Shown here: positions 16,656 to 29,092 of the stretch, piece by piece
Position numbering within the stretch: position 1 is the first letter of the stretch
Layout: every line of letters begins with the position of its first letter
Source: an uncultured Methanosarcinales archaeon
GTDB taxonomy: Archaea > Nanobdellota > Nanobdellia > Woesearchaeales > UBA12501
Length of the DNA stretch: 41,776 bases
Direction: 5' to 3'
Assembly: GCA_964397315.1 (NCBI GenBank)
Contig: CAYNHV010000010.1
Span: forward strand, 1-41,776
Program-made: the position numbers and the translations under genes
The notes under the pieces: generated by a model
The model's input: the letters and a program-made list of their open reading frames with translations, nothing else
Database searches by the model: none
Told to the model about the DNA's origin: nothing

Positions 16656-19600
16656 TCATTTAAGATTGATGTCTGTTTTTTTGCTGCCCTTGCTGCCTTT
16701 CTTTTTTGGCTTTGGCTCTTTTACCTTCTCTGCTTCTCCTGCTGTTTTTCCCCCTCTTTTTCTTAACACAGCTATTATCAAAGAAAGGACAATTATCCCT
16801 GCCAGTGCGTAGAGCAGGTAGGACCACGCAGCAGAGAACCTGTTTTCTCTCACCTGCAGAGTAAACCCTTTTGTGAACCTGTCCCTCTGGCCAGGCACCG
16901 CTATGTCAACAGAGAGCCGGTAATTTCCGTCCATCACTGACTCATTAGGGGATGCAATTATGTCAATCACCCTGCTTGTGTTAGGCTCTATTTCAACCTC
17001 TCTCTCATCAATCTTTATCCAGGATATGTTGTCATTCATCATTATCCTGAACGTGGCTGTCTCGTTTGCATTGTAAATCCTGAGCGGGATCTGAGTTTCA
17101 CTGCCTTTTTTCACGAACACTTTTTCATATGATATCTTGCCATCATCTTCAGGAGTTTCGCCCTCTCCATCAGGAGCGCCTCCTTGAAGCCCCTCCTCTT
17201 GCAGTGTCTTGTTTGCTGCCTCTTCCACCCCCTCAGGGATGCCTGTCTGGTTGGTTGTTTCATTTCCTGTGAGGGATGCCAGGCTTTTTACAGCGTAAAT
17301 GCTTCCATATATTATGCCTGCGAGAATGATGACCATGACAGCCCCAAGCAGCATGAACTTGAGCCATGTCCTGTCCCCCTTGCTCTCCAGGGTTCTTTTT
17401 TTCCCGCTCTCGGATTTTTTATCCTTCTTTTCCTTTTCTGTAGGCATTTCCAGGCTTTCCTGCTTTCTTTTCTCTCGCCACCCTTTTACCCATGATGCAG
17501 CGGCCAGAAGCGCGAGCAGCGCAGCAGCGGCAATAAGGTACCAAAGGTATTTCATGTAGAAAGGCTTGTCTTTTGTGACCTTCAGAATGATCTCTTCTGA
17601 GATTGGTGTTGTTCTTCCCTCCACGTCTATCCTGATGCTTATCCTGTAATTTCCCTGGCTTACCTCATCTCCAGGAGCCACTATTATGTTTACTGTCTCC
17701 TTTTCTCCAGGGGCTATCTCTGCTGACTGTCTGTCAACACTTATCCACTCAACATCCTCTCTTATATCCACCTTGAAAACATTTGGTTCATAGTTATTCT
17801 GTATTGTAACAGGTATTGTTATGTTCTCCTTCCCCCGGACCTCTATCACCCTGCCCTCTCCTCTGAGGCCTGTCCTGTTTACGTATATGGTTGCGTTCTC
17901 AATCATGCCCCTGTCTTCTGTTGTTTCATTCTTCCGGCCGGACAGCCATGACCAAGCCTTTGACAGGAATCCTTGCGCGGCGTTCGTGTCATTCATTGCA
18001 GGCTCCTGCAGCTCTGGAGCCTCCTGGGTGGTTGCGTTTGTTTCATTAATTCCTTCTGCAGGGGCGCCTGCTAGAAGGTAAGCTCCTGCTCCGATAGCTC
18101 CCAGAAGTATGAGTATCCCGAGGATTATCAGCAGCCATTTCAGCCAGGGCCGTTTTCTTTCCTCTACATCAAGAAGCTTTTCCTCAGGCTCCTGTGGCTC
18201 CACTTTTGAAGGCTCTCCCTCTATCTCTTTCCATTCCTCCTCTTCCCTGCTCCTTTTTCTTGCTGCCATCAGCAGAGCAAGCGCCAGGATTATTATGAGC
18301 AGCAATCCAGGCACTATGAAAATCCATAGGTCTGCCAGCTTTTCAAAAAAAGTCTTTTCCCTGAGCTCTATGCTGAAAGCCCGCTCATAACCTATGTTCT
18401 TTCCTTCAGGTACTGCTGTGAGGGTGAAACCATACGTGCCTTCTTCTGTCTCATTGGTAGGATAGATGCTTATGTTCAGGTGCCTGCTTTCTCCGGGAGA
18501 CAGCTCAATTGAATTCTGCCTCGTGGTTATCCAGTCCTGTGTTGTGTTAAGGACAATATCATACTCGCCTGCCCTTATTCCTGTGCTGGAAAGCATAATC
18601 CGGGCGTTTTTTCCTGAGTAGTCAATATCTATCTCGTCTTTCTCTCCACCTATATTGACAGCATATGCTTCCTGGAGGGGTATCACTTCAGAGGCAAAGG
18701 TTTTCTGCACAATTTTTTCAGGAAAGCCGGATATGTTGGCCGAGACCGTGAACTCATAGGTTCCTGTTGCATTGCATGGCACGTCAAGCTTTACAGGCAC
18801 ATCCTTTGAGTCTCCGGGAGGGACTCTTATTGACGTGTAGCCGAGGCTTGACCACGGCATTCCGAAAAGCTCAAGAGAGTATTCGCTTTCCCTTGTGCCG
18901 TCATTGATTATGCGGGCCTCTGTAACGTGCTCCTCGCAGCTTGCCAGCGGCGGGACAGCGTCTATTGTCAGGTTAACAGAGTAGCACTCCTCAACACCCA
19001 CATTCATTGATTTTGAAACTCTCAGCTCGCCTCTTTCTGAAACAGATGAGATAGTGAGATTGTACATTCCCTCTGGAGCTGAGGAGGGGTAAAGTGTCAG
19101 GTTTGTGCTGGTTGACTGCTTCTTTCCAAGGCTTACAGCGCCCTGTTCAAAGAAGGCCCACTCAGCATCCGCGTCCAAGAAGTAGCTGTTCGCCACGTCC
19201 GCGTCGTTACTTACTGTTATTGGAAGCACATTCCTCACGCCCCTGCATACTGAAACGCTTTCAGGAGATGATATTGTGTAATCATAGCAGGGGTTTATCT
19301 TCAGCTCAAAAGGGAGTTCAGCAAGCATACCGCTTCTCTGGGCTTCCGCCATCAGGGTAAAGTCAAGGTCTCCGAACATGCCGCAGGGGGTGGCCACAAA
19401 AACATATACCTCCTCGCTCTTTCCAGGCCCAAGGACAAGCAGGTCCTCGCTGATGCTGATATACTCTGGAAAGGGGGCCACATTAATGTTATATGTCTCA
19501 ACAAAATCTCCTGTGTTCATGACAGTGAAGTCGTACCTTACAGGCATACAGGGGCATATCTCTTCAGGCTGCCTTGTCTGTTTTATGTCAACATTAACGC

Positions 19601-20003
19601 ACTTCCTTATGTCAATTGTCTGCTCAATCTGTTTTGCAGTGCCGAATGCTGTGCTTATTGTGGTTATGAGGTCAAATTTTCCTTTCCTGTTACATGGCGC
19701 ACTTATGAAATTATGAAGCTCTCTGCTCTCTCCGGGTTTCAGGGTGAATGTTTCCTGACTTACTGCAGAATAAGCTGCGCCTTCACCGCTCTGGTTTATC
19801 TCATAGGCGCTTGTGACCTCCCCTGTGTTCTCTACAGTGATAATGTTTTCGGTGCCTGAGCATGCGCAGGAGTAGAGAATCTTGTTCTGCGCATAGGCGT
19901 TGAAGCCCTCATGGGGGCTCTGAACAGCCATGGCAGACTTCAGGCTTATGATGAGAAGAATTGCAAACAGGACCCCGTAAAAAAGCTTTGTTTTACTACT
20001 CAT
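16656..20003 (-). CDS. Large cell-surface protein with repeated Ig-like (NEW3/CARDB-like) domains and five internal/C-terminal TM helices
   Basis: Signal peptide; ~105-aa beta-rich repeats (NTG..Y.I...L.PGES....) with conserved Cys; many NxT/S sequons; hydrophobic TM stretches; start 20003 preferred over 20033. Confidence 0.85.
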   Translation of the reverse strand: MSSKTKLFYGVLFAILLIISLKSAMAVQSPHEGFNAYAQNKILYSCACSGTENIITVENTGEVTSAYEINQSGEGAAYSAVSQETFTLKPGESRELHNFISAPCNRKGKFDLITTISTAFGTAKQIEQTIDIRKCVNVDIKQTRQPEEICPCMPVRYDFTVMNTGDFVETYNINVAPFPEYISISEDLLVLGPGKSEEVYVFVATPCGMFGDLDFTLMAEAQRSGMLAELPFELKINPCYDYTISSPESVSVCRGVRNVLPITVSNDADVANSYFLDADAEWAFFEQGAVSLGKKQSTSTNLTLYPSSAPEGMYNLTISSVSERGELRVSKSMNVGVEECYSVNLTIDAVPPLASCEEHVTEARIINDGTRESEYSLELFGMPWSSLGYTSIRVPPGDSKDVPVKLDVPCNATGTYEFTVSANISGFPEKIVQKTFASEVIPLQEAYAVNIGGEKDEIDIDYSGKNARIMLSSTGIRAGEYDIVLNTTQDWITTRQNSIELSPGESRHLNISIYPTNETEEGTYGFTLTAVPEGKNIGYERAFSIELREKTFFEKLADLWIFIVPGLLLIIILALALLMAARKRSREEEEWKEIEGEPSKVEPQEPEEKLLDVEERKRPWLKWLLIILGILILLGAIGAGAYLLAGAPAEGINETNATTQEAPELQEPAMNDTNAAQGFLSKAWSWLSGRKNETTEDRGMIENATIYVNRTGLRGEGRVIEVRGKENITIPVTIQNNYEPNVFKVDIREDVEWISVDRQSAEIAPGEKETVNIIVAPGDEVSQGNYRISIRIDVEGRTTPISEEIILKVTKDKPFYMKYLWYLIAAAALLALLAAASWVKGWREKRKQESLEMPTEKEKKDKKSESGKKRTLESKGDRTWLKFMLLGAVMVIILAGIIYGSIYAVKSLASLTGNETTNQTGIPEGVEEAANKTLQEEGLQGGAPDGEGETPEDDGKISYEKVFVKKGSETQIPLRIYNANETATFRIMMNDNISWIKIDEREVEIEPNTSRVIDIIASPNESVMDGNYRLSVDIAVPGQRDRFTKGFTLQVRENRFSAAWSYLLYALAGIIVLSLIIAVLRKRGGKTAGEAEKVKEPKPKKKGSKGSKKTDINLK

Positions 20004-20165
20004 GGTTAATAACCCCGATTTATTACTTAGCAATAGAATATTAATATATAAAGGTTTCGTTTTAAGTATTTTAGCTCATATATGGGATGAGATAAGGCCA
20101 AACCAGGGGGAGAATGAGGCTTGAGAGCAGTATTGGCTAAAACAGCAAAATTTATATATGAAATC

Positions 20166-20179
20166 TTAACTATTGTTAA
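20166..20179. promoter_or_regulatory. Palindromic operator candidate TTAAC-N4-GTTAA downstream of the TATA box of the HTH-isc operon
   Basis: TATA-like TTTATATA at 20151-20158; palindrome lies near the expected start site. Confidence 0.4.
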
Positions 20180-20190
20180 TTCTGGTATAC

Positions 20191-20613
20191 ATGGCAGTCC
20201 AACAAAAACAGTATATGCCCCAGGAGATAGAGGTGTGGTACATAATACCTGGCTTGAGAAGGGAGCTCGCAAATGCAATGTCCTCAAAAGGGAGGAGCCA
20301 GAAGAGGATAGCAGAGCTTCTTGGCATAACAGAGGCTGCTGTAAGCCAGTATGTTAAGCACAAGCGGGCCAGTGAGGTAGAGTTCCAGCCAGAGACGCTG
20401 GCAGAGATAAGCAGGTCAGCTGAAAGGATAGCAGGGGACCCTGAAAGCATGGTCTGCGAGATGCAGAGGCTGCTGGCAATAGTCAAGAGAAGCAAGACCC
20501 TCTGCAGGGTGCATTACAGGTTCGGAAGAACGCCAAGAAAATGCGAGGCCTGCATGGGGATAAAAAAAGATGCAGAGGCCGGAAGGAAACAAGGCAATCA
20601 AGGAGAAATGTAA
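20191..20613 (+). CDS. HTH transcriptional regulator with a C-terminal CxxH...CxxC motif (COG2522-like)
   Basis: PQEIEVWYIIPGLRRELA, SQKRIAELLGITEAAVSQY..KR, CRVH...CEAC; first gene of the isc operon. Confidence 0.85.
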   Translation: MAVQQKQYMPQEIEVWYIIPGLRRELANAMSSKGRSQKRIAELLGITEAAVSQYVKHKRASEVEFQPETLAEISRSAERIAGDPESMVCEMQRLLAIVKRSKTLCRVHYRFGRTPRKCEACMGIKKDAEAGRKQGNQGEM

Positions 20614-20667
20614 TATAAACTAATATACAAACTAAGGATATAAACTCTGGGAAGAGAAGGAGTGAAA

Positions 20668-21846
20668 ATGAGAACAATCTATCTTGACAATGCAGCAACC
20701 ACAATGGTTGATGAAAAAGCAGTGAAAGCCATGCTTCCGTATTTTACTGAAAGGTATGGCAATGCCTCATCATCCCACCACAAGGGGCAGGAGGCAAAGA
20801 TGGCCCTGGAAGAAGCCAGGGAGAGGATAGCGAAGTCAATAGGCGCGAAGCATGACGAGATAATATTTATGTCAGGGGGCACAGAAGCAAACAATCTTGC
20901 GATAAAAGGCATTGCTTTTGCCAACAAGGGCAAAGGAGGGCACATCATAACAACAAAGATAGAGCATGACTGCGTTCTTAATGCCTGCAGGTGGCTTGAG
21001 ACGCAGGGTTTCAGGATCACATACCTTGATGTTGACAGAGAGGGATTTGTCAGCCCTGAAGAGCTTGAAAAGGCTCTAACAAAAGACACGCTTCTAGTGT
21101 CAATCATACACGGCAACAATGAGATAGGGACAATCCAGGACCTGAAAAAGCTCGGGGAGGTGTGCAGTAAGCACAATGTAGCATTCCATACAGATGCCTG
21201 CCAGAGCTACACAAAAGCTGAGCTTAATGTTAAAAAGCAGAACCTTGACCTTGTCACAATAAACAGCCATAAGATACATGGTCCAAAGGGAGTCGGAGCT
21301 TTGTTCATAAGAAAGGGAGTTAAGATAACGCCCCTCCTGCATGGCGGAGGGCATGAAAACAAGCTGAGATCAGGCACAGAGAATGTTCCGGGCGTTGTGG
21401 GGTTTGCAAAGGCGGTTGAGGCAGCCAAGAAAGGCCATGTAAGAAGGATGAGAAAGATGAGGGATCGCATAATCAAAGAGCTTCAGAAGATTCCTGACGC
21501 GGCTCTCAACGGACCTCAGGGAGAATGGAGGCTGTGCAATAACATAAACTTCTCATTCAGGTATGTTGAAGGAGAGTCAATAGGCGCGTTTCTTGACGCA
21601 AAGAAGGGAATATGCACATCAACAGGCTCTGCATGCTCCTCACACACTCTTGAGCCAAGCCATGTCCTGCTCGCGACAGGCCTTGAGCCTGAAGAAGCCC
21701 ACGGAAGCCTCAGGATAAGCCTGAGCAGGTTCACCACAGATGAGGAGGTTAAAGTCTTTCTTGAAACCCTTCCTGGAGTGATAGAAAAGCTGAGGAACAT
21801 GAGCCCACTTGCAAAAAACAGGGACATGAAAGGGAGCGAGGTATGA
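20668..21846 (+). CDS. iscS: Cysteine desulfurase (IscS/NifS type)
   Basis: YLDNAATT, GGTEANN, HTDACQ, PLP lysine in SHKIHGPKG, RSGTEN, catalytic STGSACSS. Confidence 0.96.
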   Translation: MRTIYLDNAATTMVDEKAVKAMLPYFTERYGNASSSHHKGQEAKMALEEARERIAKSIGAKHDEIIFMSGGTEANNLAIKGIAFANKGKGGHIITTKIEHDCVLNACRWLETQGFRITYLDVDREGFVSPEELEKALTKDTLLVSIIHGNNEIGTIQDLKKLGEVCSKHNVAFHTDACQSYTKAELNVKKQNLDLVTINSHKIHGPKGVGALFIRKGVKITPLLHGGGHENKLRSGTENVPGVVGFAKAVEAAKKGHVRRMRKMRDRIIKELQKIPDAALNGPQGEWRLCNNINFSFRYVEGESIGAFLDAKKGICTSTGSACSSHTLEPSHVLLATGLEPEEAHGSLRISLSRFTTDEEVKVFLETLPGVIEKLRNMSPLAKNRDMKGSEV

Positions 21847-22259
21847 TGACCAGGCCTAAACAGCAGGGAGGATACAGCGAGAGAGCCCTTGAATACTTTA
21901 AGAACCCCCTGCATGCTGGGGAGATAGACAAGCCTGACGGAGTGGGCAAGGTGGGCAACGCTGTTTGCGGAGACGTAATGCACATATTCATCAAGGTAAA
22001 GGACAACCGGATATCAGACATAAAGTTTAAGACCTTCGGGTGCGTTGCTGCCATAAGCTCCTCTGAAGCGCTGTGCAGGATTGCCAAGGGAAAGACGGTT
22101 GAGGAGGCAGAAAAGATAACAAACAAGCAGATACTTGATCATCTGGGATGGCTGCCGCCTATAAAGACGCACTGCTCTGTGCTCGGAGCAGAAGGCCTGC
22201 ACGAGGCAATAAAGAATTACCGGGAAAAGGATAAGGGAAAGAAGCAGGGAAAAGCATAA
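21843..22259 (+). CDS. iscU: Fe-S cluster scaffold protein (IscU/NifU N-terminal)
   Basis: GNAVCGD, FKTFGCVAA, LPPIKTHCS; ATGA overlap with iscS. Confidence 0.95.
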   Translation: MMTRPKQQGGYSERALEYFKNPLHAGEIDKPDGVGKVGNAVCGDVMHIFIKVKDNRISDIKFKTFGCVAAISSSEALCRIAKGKTVEEAEKITNKQILDHLGWLPPIKTHCSVLGAEGLHEAIKNYREKDKGKKQGKA

Positions 22260-22285
22260 AAATAAACATCCAACTGTGAATTCTG

Positions 22286-23149
22286 ATGAAAGCAGTTCTT
22301 GTAAGGTACGGGGAACTGGCCCTGAAAGGAAAAAACCGGGCTGATTTTGAGAGCAAGCTCAAGAGCAACATTATCAGCTCACTAAGCCTCAGGCCAGCAA
22401 CAGGGCACCCTAGAGTCAGGAGAATCTCAGGCAGGCTTGTGATTTATACCGAAAACCAGGGGGGGGTGATGCAGCAGCTCAGAAGGGTTTTTGGGATTGT
22501 CTCGTTGAGCGCTGCAGAGGAGCTGCCCCTGGACATGGATGGGATAAAGGGAGAATGCCTGAAGCAGGCACAACAGGAGAGCTTCTCAACATTCAGGATA
22601 AGCGTGAGCAGGCTGCAGAAAAACCTCAGGCCAAGCCCTGAGCTTGAGAAGGATATCGGAGCCTTCATTGCGGATGAGACAGGCAGGAAAGTTAAGCTGA
22701 AGAGCCCCGGCCTTGAGATATTCGTTGAGATAGCTGAAAGGGCATATGTTTTCACAGAAAAGCAGAAGTGCGTCGGAGGGCTTCCCGCAGGCATTGAAGG
22801 CAGGGCGCTGGCTCTTATTGAGGGCCATAATTCTGTGCTTGCAGGACTGCTTGCAATGAGGAGGGGATGCGAGCTCGTTCCTGTTGCATATCCTGATACA
22901 GAATGCCTTGAATCCTTTAAGGAGCTGCTTGCGAGATATGGTTGTGAGAGAAAGGTGAAAATTGTAAAAGACATTAAAGAAGCAGGGGATGTTGCAGAAA
23001 GAAAGGGTGCAAGAGCAGTAATAACAGGCCAGCAGCTGGAAACCCTGAGAAGCATTGAAGGAGATGGGGTTGCGTTGCCTGTGCTGAGGCCTCTTGTCGG
23101 GATAAGCCCCTTAATGGCTGAGAAGATTCTCCTTATAGGGAATTCATAG
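22286..23149 (+). CDS. thiI: ThiI-like protein: intact NFLD+THUMP tRNA-binding part, degenerate and truncated PP-loop domain
   Basis: VRYGELALKGKNR..FE, RVFGIVS, GGLPAG, LRPLVG; SGGxDS replaced by IEGHNS. Confidence 0.8.
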   Translation: MKAVLVRYGELALKGKNRADFESKLKSNIISSLSLRPATGHPRVRRISGRLVIYTENQGGVMQQLRRVFGIVSLSAAEELPLDMDGIKGECLKQAQQESFSTFRISVSRLQKNLRPSPELEKDIGAFIADETGRKVKLKSPGLEIFVEIAERAYVFTEKQKCVGGLPAGIEGRALALIEGHNSVLAGLLAMRRGCELVPVAYPDTECLESFKELLARYGCERKVKIVKDIKEAGDVAERKGARAVITGQQLETLRSIEGDGVALPVLRPLVGISPLMAEKILLIGNS

Positions 23150-23163
23150 AGAAAAAAGGCAAA

Positions 23164-24108
23164 ATGAATCATAAAACAGGGGATAAAGGAGATGAGCAGG
23201 AGTTCTTGCGCTGCTTTGAGAAAAAAGTCAGAGACACGGTAAAAGAGCACAAGCTTTTCTCAAAAAAGGACAGGATAATTGCGGCCTGCTCAGGGGGCAA
23301 GGATTCCACAACAGTTCTGCACATACTTAACAAGCTTGGCTTTAATGTTGAGGCCTTCACAGTTGACGCGATAATAGGGAATTACACTGCAGAGAACATC
23401 AGGAACCTGAAGTCTTTCTGCAAAGAGAAAGGGATAAAGCTCAGCGTGATATCCTTTAGAGAAGAGTTCGGGGCGTCGCTCTGCTACATAAGGCAGGCCC
23501 TCTCGTCAAGGGGGGTGAAGCTGAACTCATGCACAGTCTGCGGAACATTGAGGAGATACCTCCTGAACAAGGCTGCAAAGAGCATGGGCGCGGATTGCAT
23601 TGTGACAGGCCACAATCTTGATGACGAGGCCCAATCCATAATTATGAATATGCTGAGGAACAACCTGGAGGTGTCTGCAAGACTGGGCCCGAAAACAGGA
23701 GCTTTGAGAAGCAGGGCAGCCGGTGAAGGCAGAGATGTTAAAGAAAGGAAGAGTTTTGCTGCCAGAGTCAAGCCCCTCTACTTCTGCCCTGAGGCAGAGA
23801 CAGAAAGGTACTCCAGGATAATGGGTTTCCCTGTGAAGTACGAGCCATGCCCCTGCAGGACAGGCTCTTACAGGAACAAGGTTCGGAAGATGCTTGACAG
23901 GCTGGAGCAGGACAATCCCCTCCTGAAAAGGAAAATTGTTGAGGGCTTCAGCAGGATCCTGCCTGCGCTGAAAAAGAAATACTCTTCAGGAGTTCAGATG
24001 TATTGCACGAACTGCGGGGAGCCCTCAAAGGGAAAGGAATGCAGGACATGCGAAATTCTTTCTAACCTTCATTACAAGAGAAGAAGAAACAAAAAAACAA
24101 AAAAATGA
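23164..24108 (+). CDS. ttuA: TtuA/Ncs6-like tRNA 2-thiolation protein (TIGR00269-like)
   Basis: SGGKDS, CTVCG..RR, TGHNLDDEAQ, KPL, CPC, C-terminal CTNC..CRTC Zn finger. Confidence 0.88.
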   Translation: MNHKTGDKGDEQEFLRCFEKKVRDTVKEHKLFSKKDRIIAACSGGKDSTTVLHILNKLGFNVEAFTVDAIIGNYTAENIRNLKSFCKEKGIKLSVISFREEFGASLCYIRQALSSRGVKLNSCTVCGTLRRYLLNKAAKSMGADCIVTGHNLDDEAQSIIMNMLRNNLEVSARLGPKTGALRSRAAGEGRDVKERKSFAARVKPLYFCPEAETERYSRIMGFPVKYEPCPCRTGSYRNKVRKMLDRLEQDNPLLKRKIVEGFSRILPALKKKYSSGVQMYCTNCGEPSKGKECRTCEILSNLHYKRRRNKKTKK

Positions 24109-24155
24109 AAGAGTGTGGAACTTTGGTTCTCACACTTCTAGATAACCTATTGCAG
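24100..24155 (-). ncRNA. Candidate small RNA (orphan promoter, hairpin, U-tract)
   Basis: Minus-strand GAAAGG-TTTATAAA at 24177-24190, hairpin AGTGTG-A-GAAC-CAAA-GTTC-CACACT (24112-24136), then two T7 runs; no ORF. Confidence 0.35.
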
Positions 24156-24277
24156 GGACATTTGTTAAAAGACCCATTTATAAACCTTTCCCGGACCGTA
24201 AAGGCCAAAAAAGGATAAAAAAGGCCCATTTATGATTTATAAGCATTATAACAGTCCAGAATACAAAAAAAGCCCAT

Positions 24278-25357
24278 TTAGCTCTTCTCTTTTCCCAAAA
24301 ACCAGTCTGTAAGCCTTATTTTTTTGAGCTTCCCTATCTTTTCTATCTCAATCACTCTTTTGTTCTCAAGAGACTGGAAAATCCTGGCCAGGGATGTTTT
24401 TGGTATTCCTGTGCTGTTCCTTATTGTTGCCTGGGTGCTTTTCCTGTCGTCCTGAGAGAGCAGGAACTCCACTATTTTTCCCTCCCTATCATTCAATGTT
24501 TTCATTATGTCCCTTGCCCTGGGGTTTAATCCTTCTTTCTCACCCTCAGAGCCCTCATCAGCGCTCTTGCCGGCTTCTTTAGGCGGTGCCTTACCTGGCT
24601 TTCCCTTTTTCCTTCTCCTCCTGTCCTGTTCTGTTCTCTTCTCTTTTTTCTTTCTTCTTCTAAATATCCTATACCCTGCAAAGATTCCCCCTCCGACAAC
24701 AATCAGCCCAAGAACCGCATAAAGGTACTGCCTTGTGGAGTAAAGAATAGACTTGTTAAGCCTTACTGTAACCTCGTTTAGCTCTCCTTGTGTCACGTTG
24801 GCTGTTGTTGAGCCAACCATGCCCTCATAAGCTGCCTGCACCTTACACTCCCCAACAGGAAGCAGCTCTTTCTTGAATGTGCCGAACTGGTCTGTTTTCG
24901 TGGATGAGCTGTGGGACCTGCACTTGAATGTGACATCAGCTCCGTTCACAAGCTTTCCAGAGGGGTTGGCCACGCTGCCCTCAACAGCGCCCACAGGAGC
25001 CAGATAAACAGTCATGTTGGCGGAGGGCCTGAATTCCTCTACAAGGAAGGTCCTCTCAGCAGCATAATCCATCTCAGGAGTTTCTGGCGCGTCAAGGCTC
25101 ATCACAAGCTTCCAGTTGCCTATGCTGATTCTGTAATTTATAATGCCCTGCCTGTTAGCGAACTCTGTGAGGTTAATGGTCGTTCCGGTATTCACATTAG
25201 TGAACTCCATGCTCACAGGCTGTGCAGCCACTAACTGGTTATTCTCCAGCTTCCTGACTGTTATGTAAAGATCTGAATACTCAGCTGCCTGCGAGGCTGC
25301 CAGAGCAGCCAAAAACAGGAGTACAACCCCTATCGCCGTAAAAGATTTCCTGGCCAT
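24278..25357 (-). CDS. Membrane-spanning protein with extracellular beta-sandwich (carboxypeptidase-regulatory-like) domains and a cytoplasmic wHTH (COG2512-like)
   Basis: Signal peptide; GSVANPSGKLVNGADVTF; TM YLYAVLGLIVVGGGIFAGY followed by a basic stretch; TQATIRNSTGIPKTSLARIFQSLENK HTH. Confidence 0.8.
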   Translation of the reverse strand: MARKSFTAIGVVLLFLAALAASQAAEYSDLYITVRKLENNQLVAAQPVSMEFTNVNTGTTINLTEFANRQGIINYRISIGNWKLVMSLDAPETPEMDYAAERTFLVEEFRPSANMTVYLAPVGAVEGSVANPSGKLVNGADVTFKCRSHSSSTKTDQFGTFKKELLPVGECKVQAAYEGMVGSTTANVTQGELNEVTVRLNKSILYSTRQYLYAVLGLIVVGGGIFAGYRIFRRRKKKEKRTEQDRRRRKKGKPGKAPPKEAGKSADEGSEGEKEGLNPRARDIMKTLNDREGKIVEFLLSQDDRKSTQATIRNSTGIPKTSLARIFQSLENKRVIEIEKIGKLKKIRLTDWFLGKEKS

Positions 25358-28801: not shown

Positions 28802-28865
28802 GGGGCAAAGCAGGGAAATTTTCTCAAAACCTTTATAAAGGAGGATTTTGATTTTATTGGCTGAT

Positions 28866-28951
28866 GGACCCGTTGCATAGCCTGGATAATGCGTTGGCCT
28901 TCTAATCATGAGGCAAGCCAAAGATCGTGGGTTCGAATCCCACCGGGTCCG
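28866..28951 (+). tRNA. tRNA-Arg(TCT) with an 11-nt intron (28905-28915)
   Basis: Acceptor GGACCCG/CGGGTCC+G; anticodon stem TTGGC/GCCAA; TCT at 28901-28903; GGTTCGAATCC; TATA TTTATAAA ~27 nt upstream. Confidence 0.92.
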
Positions 28952-29007
28952 TTTAAGAAAGGCAAAATGCCTGACAAAGGCACTGGATAGGTATTTCATC
29001 AACCAAC

Positions 29008-29092
29008 GGCGGCGTGGCCAAACGGCTAAGGCATTCGGCTGCAACCATAAGGCAGGGCCCGAAGATTCTGGGTTCGAATCCCAGCGCCGCCT
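29008..29092 (+). tRNA. tRNA-Cys(GCA) with a 13-nt intron (29045-29057)
   Basis: Acceptor GGCGGCG/CGCCGCC with U73; stem TTCGG/CCGAA; GCA at 29041-29043; BHB CTGC:GCAG. Confidence 0.92.

Follow-up and report, generated by a model that had tools for sequence, protein, structure and literature searches.

A conserved ThiI pseudo-enzyme encoded beside a TtuA-like gene is probably the tRNA-binding subunit of a split 4-thiouridine synthetase

The stretch of DNA analysed here (41,776 nucleotides (nt) in full, hereafter the window) is contig C10 in an archaeal genome of 1.47 Mb that is 93% complete in 61 contigs, and the nearest homologues of its genes bear the source names Candidatus Woesearchaeota or Nanoarchaeota. 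Two adjacent genes of the window encode a shortened homologue of the tRNA thiolase ThiI without its catalytic motifs, here called ThiI*, and a TtuA/NcsA-family thiolase without its N-terminal zinc finger, here called TtuA*. A stand-alone ThiI catalytic domain, ThiI-C, is encoded elsewhere in the same genome. We consider it probable (roughly 0.7) that ThiI* provides tRNA binding, but no catalysis, as one subunit of a heterodimeric [4Fe-4S]-type synthetase of 4-thiouridine at tRNA position 8 (s4U8), with ThiI-C as the other subunit. ThiI* and its neighbour are laid out as follows.

22286 to 23149, plus strand: ThiI*, 287 amino acids (aa), a PH1313-type ThiI-like protein by its similarity to Pfam models, TIGR00342 and 1vbk
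22295 to 22510, plus strand: NFLD, the ThiI ferredoxin-like domain (aa 4-75), Pfam PF22025 (ThiI_fer), E 2.6e-19
22535 to 22756, plus strand: THUMP domain (aa 84-157), Pfam PF02926, E 4.8e-7, 30.5 bits, above the cut-off of 20.6
22775 to 22801, plus strand: linker GGLPAGIEG (aa 164-172), where the family is most conserved
22811 to 23146, plus strand: dead, C-terminally shortened PP-loop domain (aa 176-287), recognized by its motif losses
23164 to 24108, plus strand: TtuA*, 314 aa, a TtuA/NcsA-family [4Fe-4S]-type thiolase without the N-terminal zinc finger

ThiI* has the NFLD followed by the THUMP domain, as ThiI/TtuI enzymes do. Its NFLD includes the invariant RYGE..LKGKNR loop, whose equivalent in T. 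maritima ThiI extends to the other subunit's active site (PMC4041423), and a genome-wide THUMP search returned the same THUMP coordinates. The catalytic features of these enzymes, however, are gone: at the position of the ATP-binding PP-loop motif SGGxDS the protein reads IEGHNS (aa 178; the short-form family reads roughly 'IEDxx-S' there), GESLGQVASQT is replaced by GQQLET (aa 248), there is no CxxC (cysteines stand at 91, 162, 195, 207 and 220), and the chain ends 17 aa past the LRPL motif, with the C-terminal part of the PP-loop pyrophosphatase (PPase) domain missing. The Pfam match to the ThiI PP-loop domain is partial (aa 169-225), and TIGR00342 matches over profile positions 1-203 of 373 with 151.7 bits, under its curated cut-off of 264.5. 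This anatomy had been described in an earlier, sequence-only reading of the same DNA, and the description held.

Among solved structures, PH1313 from Pyrococcus horikoshii is closest to ThiI* (1VBK; E 7.9e-27 over aa 1-249 of 287). In the available text of a 2023 review, PH1313 is a 'ThiI-like protein' with conserved residues missing, a C-terminal deletion and no confirmed activity (PMC9957541); no partner of it has been reported. The two proteins are similar along their length and share the order of NFLD, THUMP and PP-loop fold, the absence of SGGxDS (HDELS in PH1313 in the alignment) and the C-terminal deletion. They differ in length (307 aa in PH1313 vs 287 aa), and the organism of PH1313 is a hyperthermophile from a genus reported to have several ThiI homologues.

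Conservation indicates that ThiI* is a maintained protein. A database search with ThiI* returned proteins of 250-320 aa with the same anatomy at 33-58% identity, with full-length ThiI at lower scores, and the short form recurs as an intact frame of 243-374 aa in about 76 of the 251 genomes of the phylum, so that it is neither a chance frame nor a decayed one. An alignment of 30 short-form sequences contains 23 invariant columns. These include R7, Y8, E10, K14, G15 and N17 in the N-terminal loop, G164, G165, P167, G169 and G172 in the linker, and R193, G194, P269 and L270 in the dead domain, where C195, L267 and R268 are nearly invariant. Mean column identity is 0.69 in the linker, 0.56 in the NFLD, 0.55 in the THUMP domain and 0.47 in the dead PP-loop domain. 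For three ortholog pairs of thiI*, dN/dS was 0.005/0.038, 0.327/1.78 and 0.205/1.62, a ratio of about 0.13-0.18 that is rough, with dS near saturation in the distant pairs (1.6-2.9) and few changes in the closest one; the values for ttuA in the same pairs were similar (0.02/0.104, 0.278/2.87 and 0.203/2.21). One genome of the third pair, G242, is unpublished. ThiI* is under purifying selection and does not evolve neutrally, and the data support its being a conserved pseudo-enzyme with a putative tRNA-binding module retained.

The catalytic half that ThiI* lacks was found by a TIGR00342 profile search of its own genome, which returned no other ThiI-type match and no full-length ThiI.

G000:C15:14085-14702, minus strand: ThiI-C, about 206 aa, matching TIGR00342 profile positions 173-365

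ThiI-C carries the motifs SSGIDS, CVIC, GENLGQVASQT and PPGCC, and C85, C88 and C169 are invariant in 45 relatives. It thereby has, in its PPase domain, the CXXC plus C arrangement of the [4Fe-4S]-dependent TtuI class, which, in the available part of the source, binds an essential [4Fe-4S] cluster in TtuI of M. maripaludis and P. furiosus (PMC9825150). Its best structural matches are residues 173-365 of T. maritima ThiI and residues 186-374 of B. anthracis ThiI. The best NCBIfam match is NF006222 (PRK08349, 'hypothetical protein'; 186.7 bits, under the cut-off of 251, positions 2-187 of 198), a family without assigned function that, like ThiI-C, is a stand-alone ThiI-type PP-loop domain; the other family match is to the C-terminal half of ThiI. 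ThiI-C has neither a THUMP nor another RNA-binding domain. Only two THUMP proteins are encoded in the genome, ThiI* and a 383-aa frame on contig C24, and ThiI* is the sole one of ThiI type, which speaks for a heterodimer with the THUMP-less ThiI-C.

The stand-alone form of ThiI-C is abundant (4309 proteins of 113-361 aa at E <= 1e-10), and the source names of these homologues are 'hypothetical protein', 'ThiI' or '7-cyano-7-deazaguanine synthase'. The last name (QueC) is carried in public records by the homologues P0149, P0178 and P0184; given their ThiI motifs and ThiI-type matches, it appears to be a misannotation.

The same 251 genomes of the phylum were searched with ThiI*, ThiI-C and TtuA* as queries, which matched in 132, 142 and 217 genomes, respectively. 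Comparison of the coordinates of the ThiI* and ThiI-C matches gave the following classes.

Fused ThiI, 53 genomes: a single open frame of 358-515 aa that covers both halves
Split ThiI, 76 genomes: an N-type frame of 243-374 aa (one of them stop-interrupted) and a separate C-type frame of 180-275 aa
N half only, 3 genomes: two of them (G107 and G227) with the match at contig ends
True stand-alone C half only, 3 genomes: G020, G216 and G237
Weak C-type match only, 10 genomes: other PP-loop proteins of 291-346 aa

None of the 251 genomes has both fused and split ThiI. ThiI* and a stand-alone ThiI-C co-occur in 76 of 79 genomes in either direction, a tally that is to be read as a pattern and not as a statistic, as related genomes are not independent; the split genomes include the unpublished G242. 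The genome of the window is one of those with a separate live ThiI catalytic domain and no full-length ThiI, the same pattern as in 76 of the 251. In all 76 split genomes the halves lie on different contigs or at least 3.2 kb apart.

The weak C-type matches in 10 ThiI-less genomes (E 1e-9 to 1e-15) concern a different PP-loop protein. Its gene abuts a TtuA-like gene in G153 (G153:C2:76029-76448 and 76445-77275), and a counterpart in G195 (G195:C1:69162-69587) lies near 66146-66943. This protein is possibly a further PP-loop partner, or a paralogue, belonging to the same cluster.

How the two halves could work together is suggested by the structures of T. maritima ThiI with RNA. According to the available part of that report, one subunit's NFLD and THUMP domain bind the acceptor stem and CCA end, U8 is placed at the PPase active site of the other subunit, and it is mainly the PPase domains that make up the dimer interface; from subunit B, the NFLD loop Ser12-Arg21 lies on the PPase domain of subunit A, with Lys17 of B reaching into the active site of A, and the authors' conclusion is that U8 can be positioned only in the dimer (PMC4041423). 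Because ThiI* keeps the NFLD, the THUMP domain and the PPase fold, and ThiI-C a live PPase domain, the two retain one complete site of this in-trans kind. The acceptor stem and 3'-CCA end would be bound by the NFLD-THUMP module of ThiI*, the sole task of the dead PP-loop domain would be dimerisation with ThiI-C, and U8 would be presented in trans to the ThiI-C active site, as in the ThiI homodimer. The invariant parts of ThiI*, namely the N-terminal loop, the linker and patches of the dead domain, appear to be those that such a heterodimer needs. We infer both the physical dimer and s4U8 as its product. A full ThiI may have been duplicated, with complementary losses in the two copies giving rise to the pair.

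The proposed pair has the same domains and proposed mechanism as the canonical ThiI/TtuI homodimer (T. maritima 4KR6, B. anthracis 2C5S and the M. maripaludis [4Fe-4S] TtuI, with whose class ThiI-C shares its cysteine motif). Unlike in the homodimer, the roles are distributed over two genes, as ThiI* has lost catalysis and ThiI-C has lost RNA binding, and the proposed dimer would have one active site and one tRNA site, whereas the homodimer has two of each. A live PP-loop thiolase paired with a catalytically dead paralogue is known from Ncs6/Ncs2 (Ctu1/Ctu2). The sequence-only reading had drawn this analogy for ThiI* and TtuA*, for which neither co-occurrence nor dependence was found, as described below; it fits ThiI-C and ThiI* better, since the dead subunit of Ncs6/Ncs2 is a paralogue of the live one, a relation that holds for ThiI* and ThiI-C and not for ThiI* and TtuA*.

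The motifs of TtuA* were judged in an alignment of 29 relatives.

23290 to 23307, plus strand: PP-loop SGGKDS (aa 43-48), invariant in 29 sequences
23530 to 23541, plus strand: catalytic CxxC (C123, C126), invariant, aligned with the third CXXC motif of PH0300 TtuA
23848 to 23856, plus strand: CPC (C229, C231), the third cluster cysteine position, invariant, aligned with 'CP' of PH0300
24004 to 24051, plus strand: C-terminal zinc finger CxxC...CxxC (C281, C284, C293, C296), invariant

The catalytic motifs are thus complete, and there is no N-terminal zinc finger, both as had been read from the sequence. The alignment to PH0300 TtuA begins only at PH0300 residue 23, and the open frame upstream of the ttuA* ATG holds only 14 aa (328 vs 314 aa), from which it follows that TtuA* truly lacks the first zinc finger. 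A missed upstream start restoring it was ruled out on the same ground. The TtcA family's group II (TtuA/Ncs6/NcsA) is described as having five CXXC(H) motifs that include zinc fingers at the N- and C-terminus (PMC3980101). TtuA* has the PP motif, the third CXXC and the further catalytic cysteine of this group; the first and second CXXC motifs are absent, leaving the set of five incomplete. The TtuA/NcsA structures 3vrh, 5mko, 5gha and 6scy match TtuA* at E 1e-38 to 1e-33 and share its PP-loop, catalytic CXXC plus Cys and C-terminal zinc finger. Its scores on the equivalog models are far below the cut-offs (TtuA(54), 164.9 bits vs 450; NcsA(34), 142.8 bits vs 500), and all 29 relatives match both models, likewise well below.

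In aa 179-199 of TtuA* (23698-23760), about 13 extra residues (around RSRAAGEGRDVKERK) are missing from 27 of 28 aligned relatives. A shorter insertion is present at this position in the TtuA-like protein of L021.

The N-termini of the 30 best TtuA-like loci were read and crossed with the ThiI classes.

Zinc finger absent, 25 of the 30 best loci: split ThiI, 12; fused ThiI, 2 (G151, G175); no ThiI, 11 (G002, G035, G050, G072, G074, G082, G104, G109, G153, G177, G229); ThiI-C only, 0
Zinc finger present, 5 of the 30 best loci: split ThiI, 1 (G067); fused ThiI, 1 (G117); no ThiI, 2 (G038, G071); ThiI-C only, 1 (G237)

As the loss is spread over the ThiI classes, it is a lineage trait independent of ThiI*. 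The proposal that ThiI* compensates for the missing zinc finger is not supported, given the 11 zinc-finger-less loci in genomes without ThiI and the two in genomes with full-length ThiI. The expected co-occurrence of a degenerate ThiI with a truncated TtuA was not found either: ThiI* tracks ThiI-C, and while a TtuA-like gene is present in 73 of the 76 split genomes, the TtuA* query at E <= 1e-8 found none in G055, G103 and G210, which have split ThiI and are 95-99% complete. TtuA-like genes occur in 217 of the 251 genomes and ThiI in about 132, zinc-finger-less TtuA in 11 ThiI-less ones, and iscU-ttuA arrangements exist without thiI*; TtuA* therefore does not depend on ThiI*.

The gene order around ttuA points in the same direction. 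The loci L007 and L008 have the order iscU-thiI*-ttuA, and in the ThiI-less genomes of L010, L013, L014 and L015 the TtuA-like gene directly follows iscS-iscU (in L030, IscS only), so that the core cluster is iscS-iscU-ttuA. Distances to ttuA were counted among the matches listed (150 of 233), which give a place for TtuA in 61 split genomes. Of these, 32 have thiI* at most 1.3 kb from ttuA (23 on the same strand, 9 on the opposite one) and 39 at most 5 kb, and in 20 it lies on another contig. ThiI-C is at most 1.3 kb from ttuA in 8 of the 61, always on the same strand, and either ThiI half is at most 5 kb away in 48; fused ThiI adjoins ttuA in 4 of 26 fused genomes. A second sample consisted of 80 named public loci (18 short forms and 62 fused forms); here, a TtuA-like gene lies within 3 kb of 7 of the 18 short forms vs 1 of the 62 fused ones, and an IscS-like gene within 3 kb of 4 of 18 vs 26 of 62. 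Adjacency of thiI* and ttuA is thus real and enriched in this lineage, and it fits a shared sulfur and Fe-S supply operon. Because ThiI-C or full-length ThiI also adjoins ttuA, the neighbourhood links ThiI as such with TtuA, and not the dead form specifically. The position of ttuA* with thiI* behind iscS-iscU may reflect thiolases that draw on a common sulfur and Fe-S supply.

TtuA* is best explained as an independent enzyme, presumably the only 2-thiouridine synthetase of TtuA/NcsA type in its genome, where it is the sole gene of this family. The genome also encodes ThiF-type E1 enzymes and Elp3 (661 bits). Elp3 makes the xm5 part of wobble-uridine modifications. Given Elp3 and the lack of a second family member, we lean towards U34 as the probable target of TtuA*. 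Against this leaning, the TtuA(54) model gives TtuA* a slightly higher score than the NcsA(34) model does, although both scores are far below the cut-offs.

Several points weigh against pairing ThiI* with ThiI-C. Their genes are usually not neighbours in the 76 split genomes, which is unusual for obligate subunits. Adjacency of thiI* to ttuA is, on the other hand, striking (32 of 61 split vs 4 of 26 fused genomes among the matches listed, and 7 of 18 short vs 1 of 62 fused forms in the second sample) and allows for a functional or physical tie to TtuA of a looser kind. By the names of search matches, Thermococcus species carry full-length ThiI, and Pyrococcus, in the available text of the review, encodes several ThiI homologues (PMC9957541), so the PH1313 type is not always a replacement for full ThiI. 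The same source has PH1313 crystallised as a homodimer, and a ThiI* homodimer with some other role is possible; binding and activity of the heterodimer are putative. One three-chain complex prediction from alignments, with ThiI* as the partner of ThiI-C and TtuA*, gave neither support for nor evidence against binding. That ThiI* works without a catalytic partner, for instance as a homodimer that binds tRNA or is a chaperone, or serves some other enzyme, would agree with the PH1313 dimer without known activity and with the distance between the two genes. We regard this as unlikely in view of its near-perfect co-occurrence with ThiI-C, the mutual exclusion of split and fused forms and the conservation of the linker and of the NFLD loop, which acts in trans; ThiI-C would, moreover, be left without a tRNA-positioning domain.

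The sequence-only reading had instead made ThiI* the tRNA-binding partner of the zinc-finger-less TtuA*, forming a two-subunit 2-thiolase whose target position had possibly changed. The part of this proposal that stood is a conserved pseudo-enzyme with its tRNA-binding module kept and its position beside a TtuA-like gene conserved; TtuA* is probably the wrong partner. In favour of this pairing are the gap of 14 nt between the two genes, their probable co-transcription, and the adjacency found in both samples. Pus10, which acts on positions 54/55, has a THUMP domain. There are also known cases of THUMP proteins that assist a separate catalytic protein, such as Tan1 with Kre33, as described in the available part of PMC11109946. 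Such a pair is nevertheless rather improbable, as most of the best TtuA-like loci lack the zinc finger irrespective of ThiI, the split genome G067 keeps it, three split genomes yielded no TtuA-like gene, iscS-iscU-ttuA clusters exist without ThiI*, ThiI* follows ThiI-C and not TtuA, and the parts of ThiI* that are invariant cooperate, in ThiI, with a PPase domain of ThiI type. The two proposals could also be combined: ThiI* might be a shared THUMP adaptor that dimerises with ThiI-C for s4U8 and also docks on the adjacent zinc-finger-less TtuA/NcsA, in which case iscS-iscU-thiI*-ttuA would form one thiolation assembly and one dead subunit would hand tRNA to two [4Fe-4S] thiolases. The adjacency in 32 of the 61 split genomes allows for this, and genomes with one gene and not the other argue only against an obligate tie between ThiI* and TtuA; we nonetheless hold such a dual role to be very unlikely. 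As for a functionless, decaying thiI remnant, the loss of all catalytic motifs and of the C-terminal third is what one would see, but intact frames of 243-374 aa in about 75 further genomes, the 23 invariant columns among 30 sequences at 33-58% identity, a dN/dS well below 1 and the fact that the homologue 1vbk is a stable, crystallised protein make it hardly credible, and a pseudogene was rejected on conservation and dN/dS.

Literature searches, with subscription journals and supplements outside their scope, found no published split or heterodimeric ThiI. If ThiI* and ThiI-C form the proposed heterodimer, this would explain thousands of proteins of about 205 aa annotated as 'hypothetical protein', 'ThiI' or 'QueC' in DPANN genomes. 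It would be a natural case of an in-trans homodimer resolved into an enzyme and a pseudo-enzyme, and would put the mechanism deduced from the T. maritima ThiI-RNA structure to a direct test by evolution. It would also correct a genome-based inference, as a 'broken' thiI in these archaea would not equal loss of s4U8. Irrespective of this pairing, the N-terminal zinc finger of TtuA-like enzymes is dispensable in some lineages.

In the window, thiI* and ttuA* are the last of five plus-strand genes that lie head to tail at 20173-24108, with successive gaps of 48, -4, 26 and 14 nt. The three upstream genes are as follows.

20173 to 20613, plus strand: small helix-turn-helix (HTH) protein, 146 aa, at the head of the cluster; weak matches to HTH families of Pfam, all below cut-offs
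20662 to 21846, plus strand: cysteine desulfurase (NifS/IscS type), the sulfur donor; Pfam Aminotran_5, E 9.9e-88
21843 to 22259, plus strand: IscU/NifU-type Fe-S scaffold; Pfam NifU_N, E 4.9e-40

The iscS product scores 501 bits on the NCBIfam NifS model (under its cut-off of 530.75) and 316 bits on the IscS-subfamily model NF002806 (above its cut-off of 304). The iscU gene overlaps the end of iscS by 4 nt, and its product scores 162.7 bits on NifU_clost, under the cut-off of 187.9. Co-transcription of ttuA* with iscS and iscU is the best reading of this arrangement. No tRNA gene or structured element was found within the span of thiI* and ttuA* (the two tRNA calls of the window are at 28865-29092), and antisense open reading frames inside this span had no support. 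A promoter and terminator scan of 19900-24400 stayed at chance level (3 vs 4.2 +/- 2.0 and 6 vs 5.9 +/- 2.7), with a bacterial consensus applied to an archaeal host. The small HTH protein is a possible regulator of the cluster. Judged by eye, it has a Cys-rich C-terminal tail (C..H......C..C), and it could be a metal- or Fe-S-sensing regulator of iscS-iscU-thiI*-ttuA.

Three further features of the window lie outside the cluster. Upstream, a minus-strand gene (16656-20033) encodes a protein of 1125 aa with repeated Cys-containing modules and several hydrophobic segments, each followed by a charged linker, which looks like a large surface or membrane protein. Downstream, the minus-strand gene at 24278-25357 encodes a protein of 359 aa with a signal-like N-terminal segment, a CarboxypepD_reg domain (E 4.6e-10), a membrane-like stretch, a Lys/Arg-rich linker and a weak C-terminal winged helix of TrmB/MarR type; the combination of an extracellular with a DNA-binding domain is unusual. 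At 28865-28952 on the plus strand, ARAGORN called a tRNA without assigning its type, with an 'anticodon (tc)' of two bases at position 37, followed 56 nt downstream by a tRNA-Cys; it may be an intron-containing or otherwise atypical archaeal tRNA.

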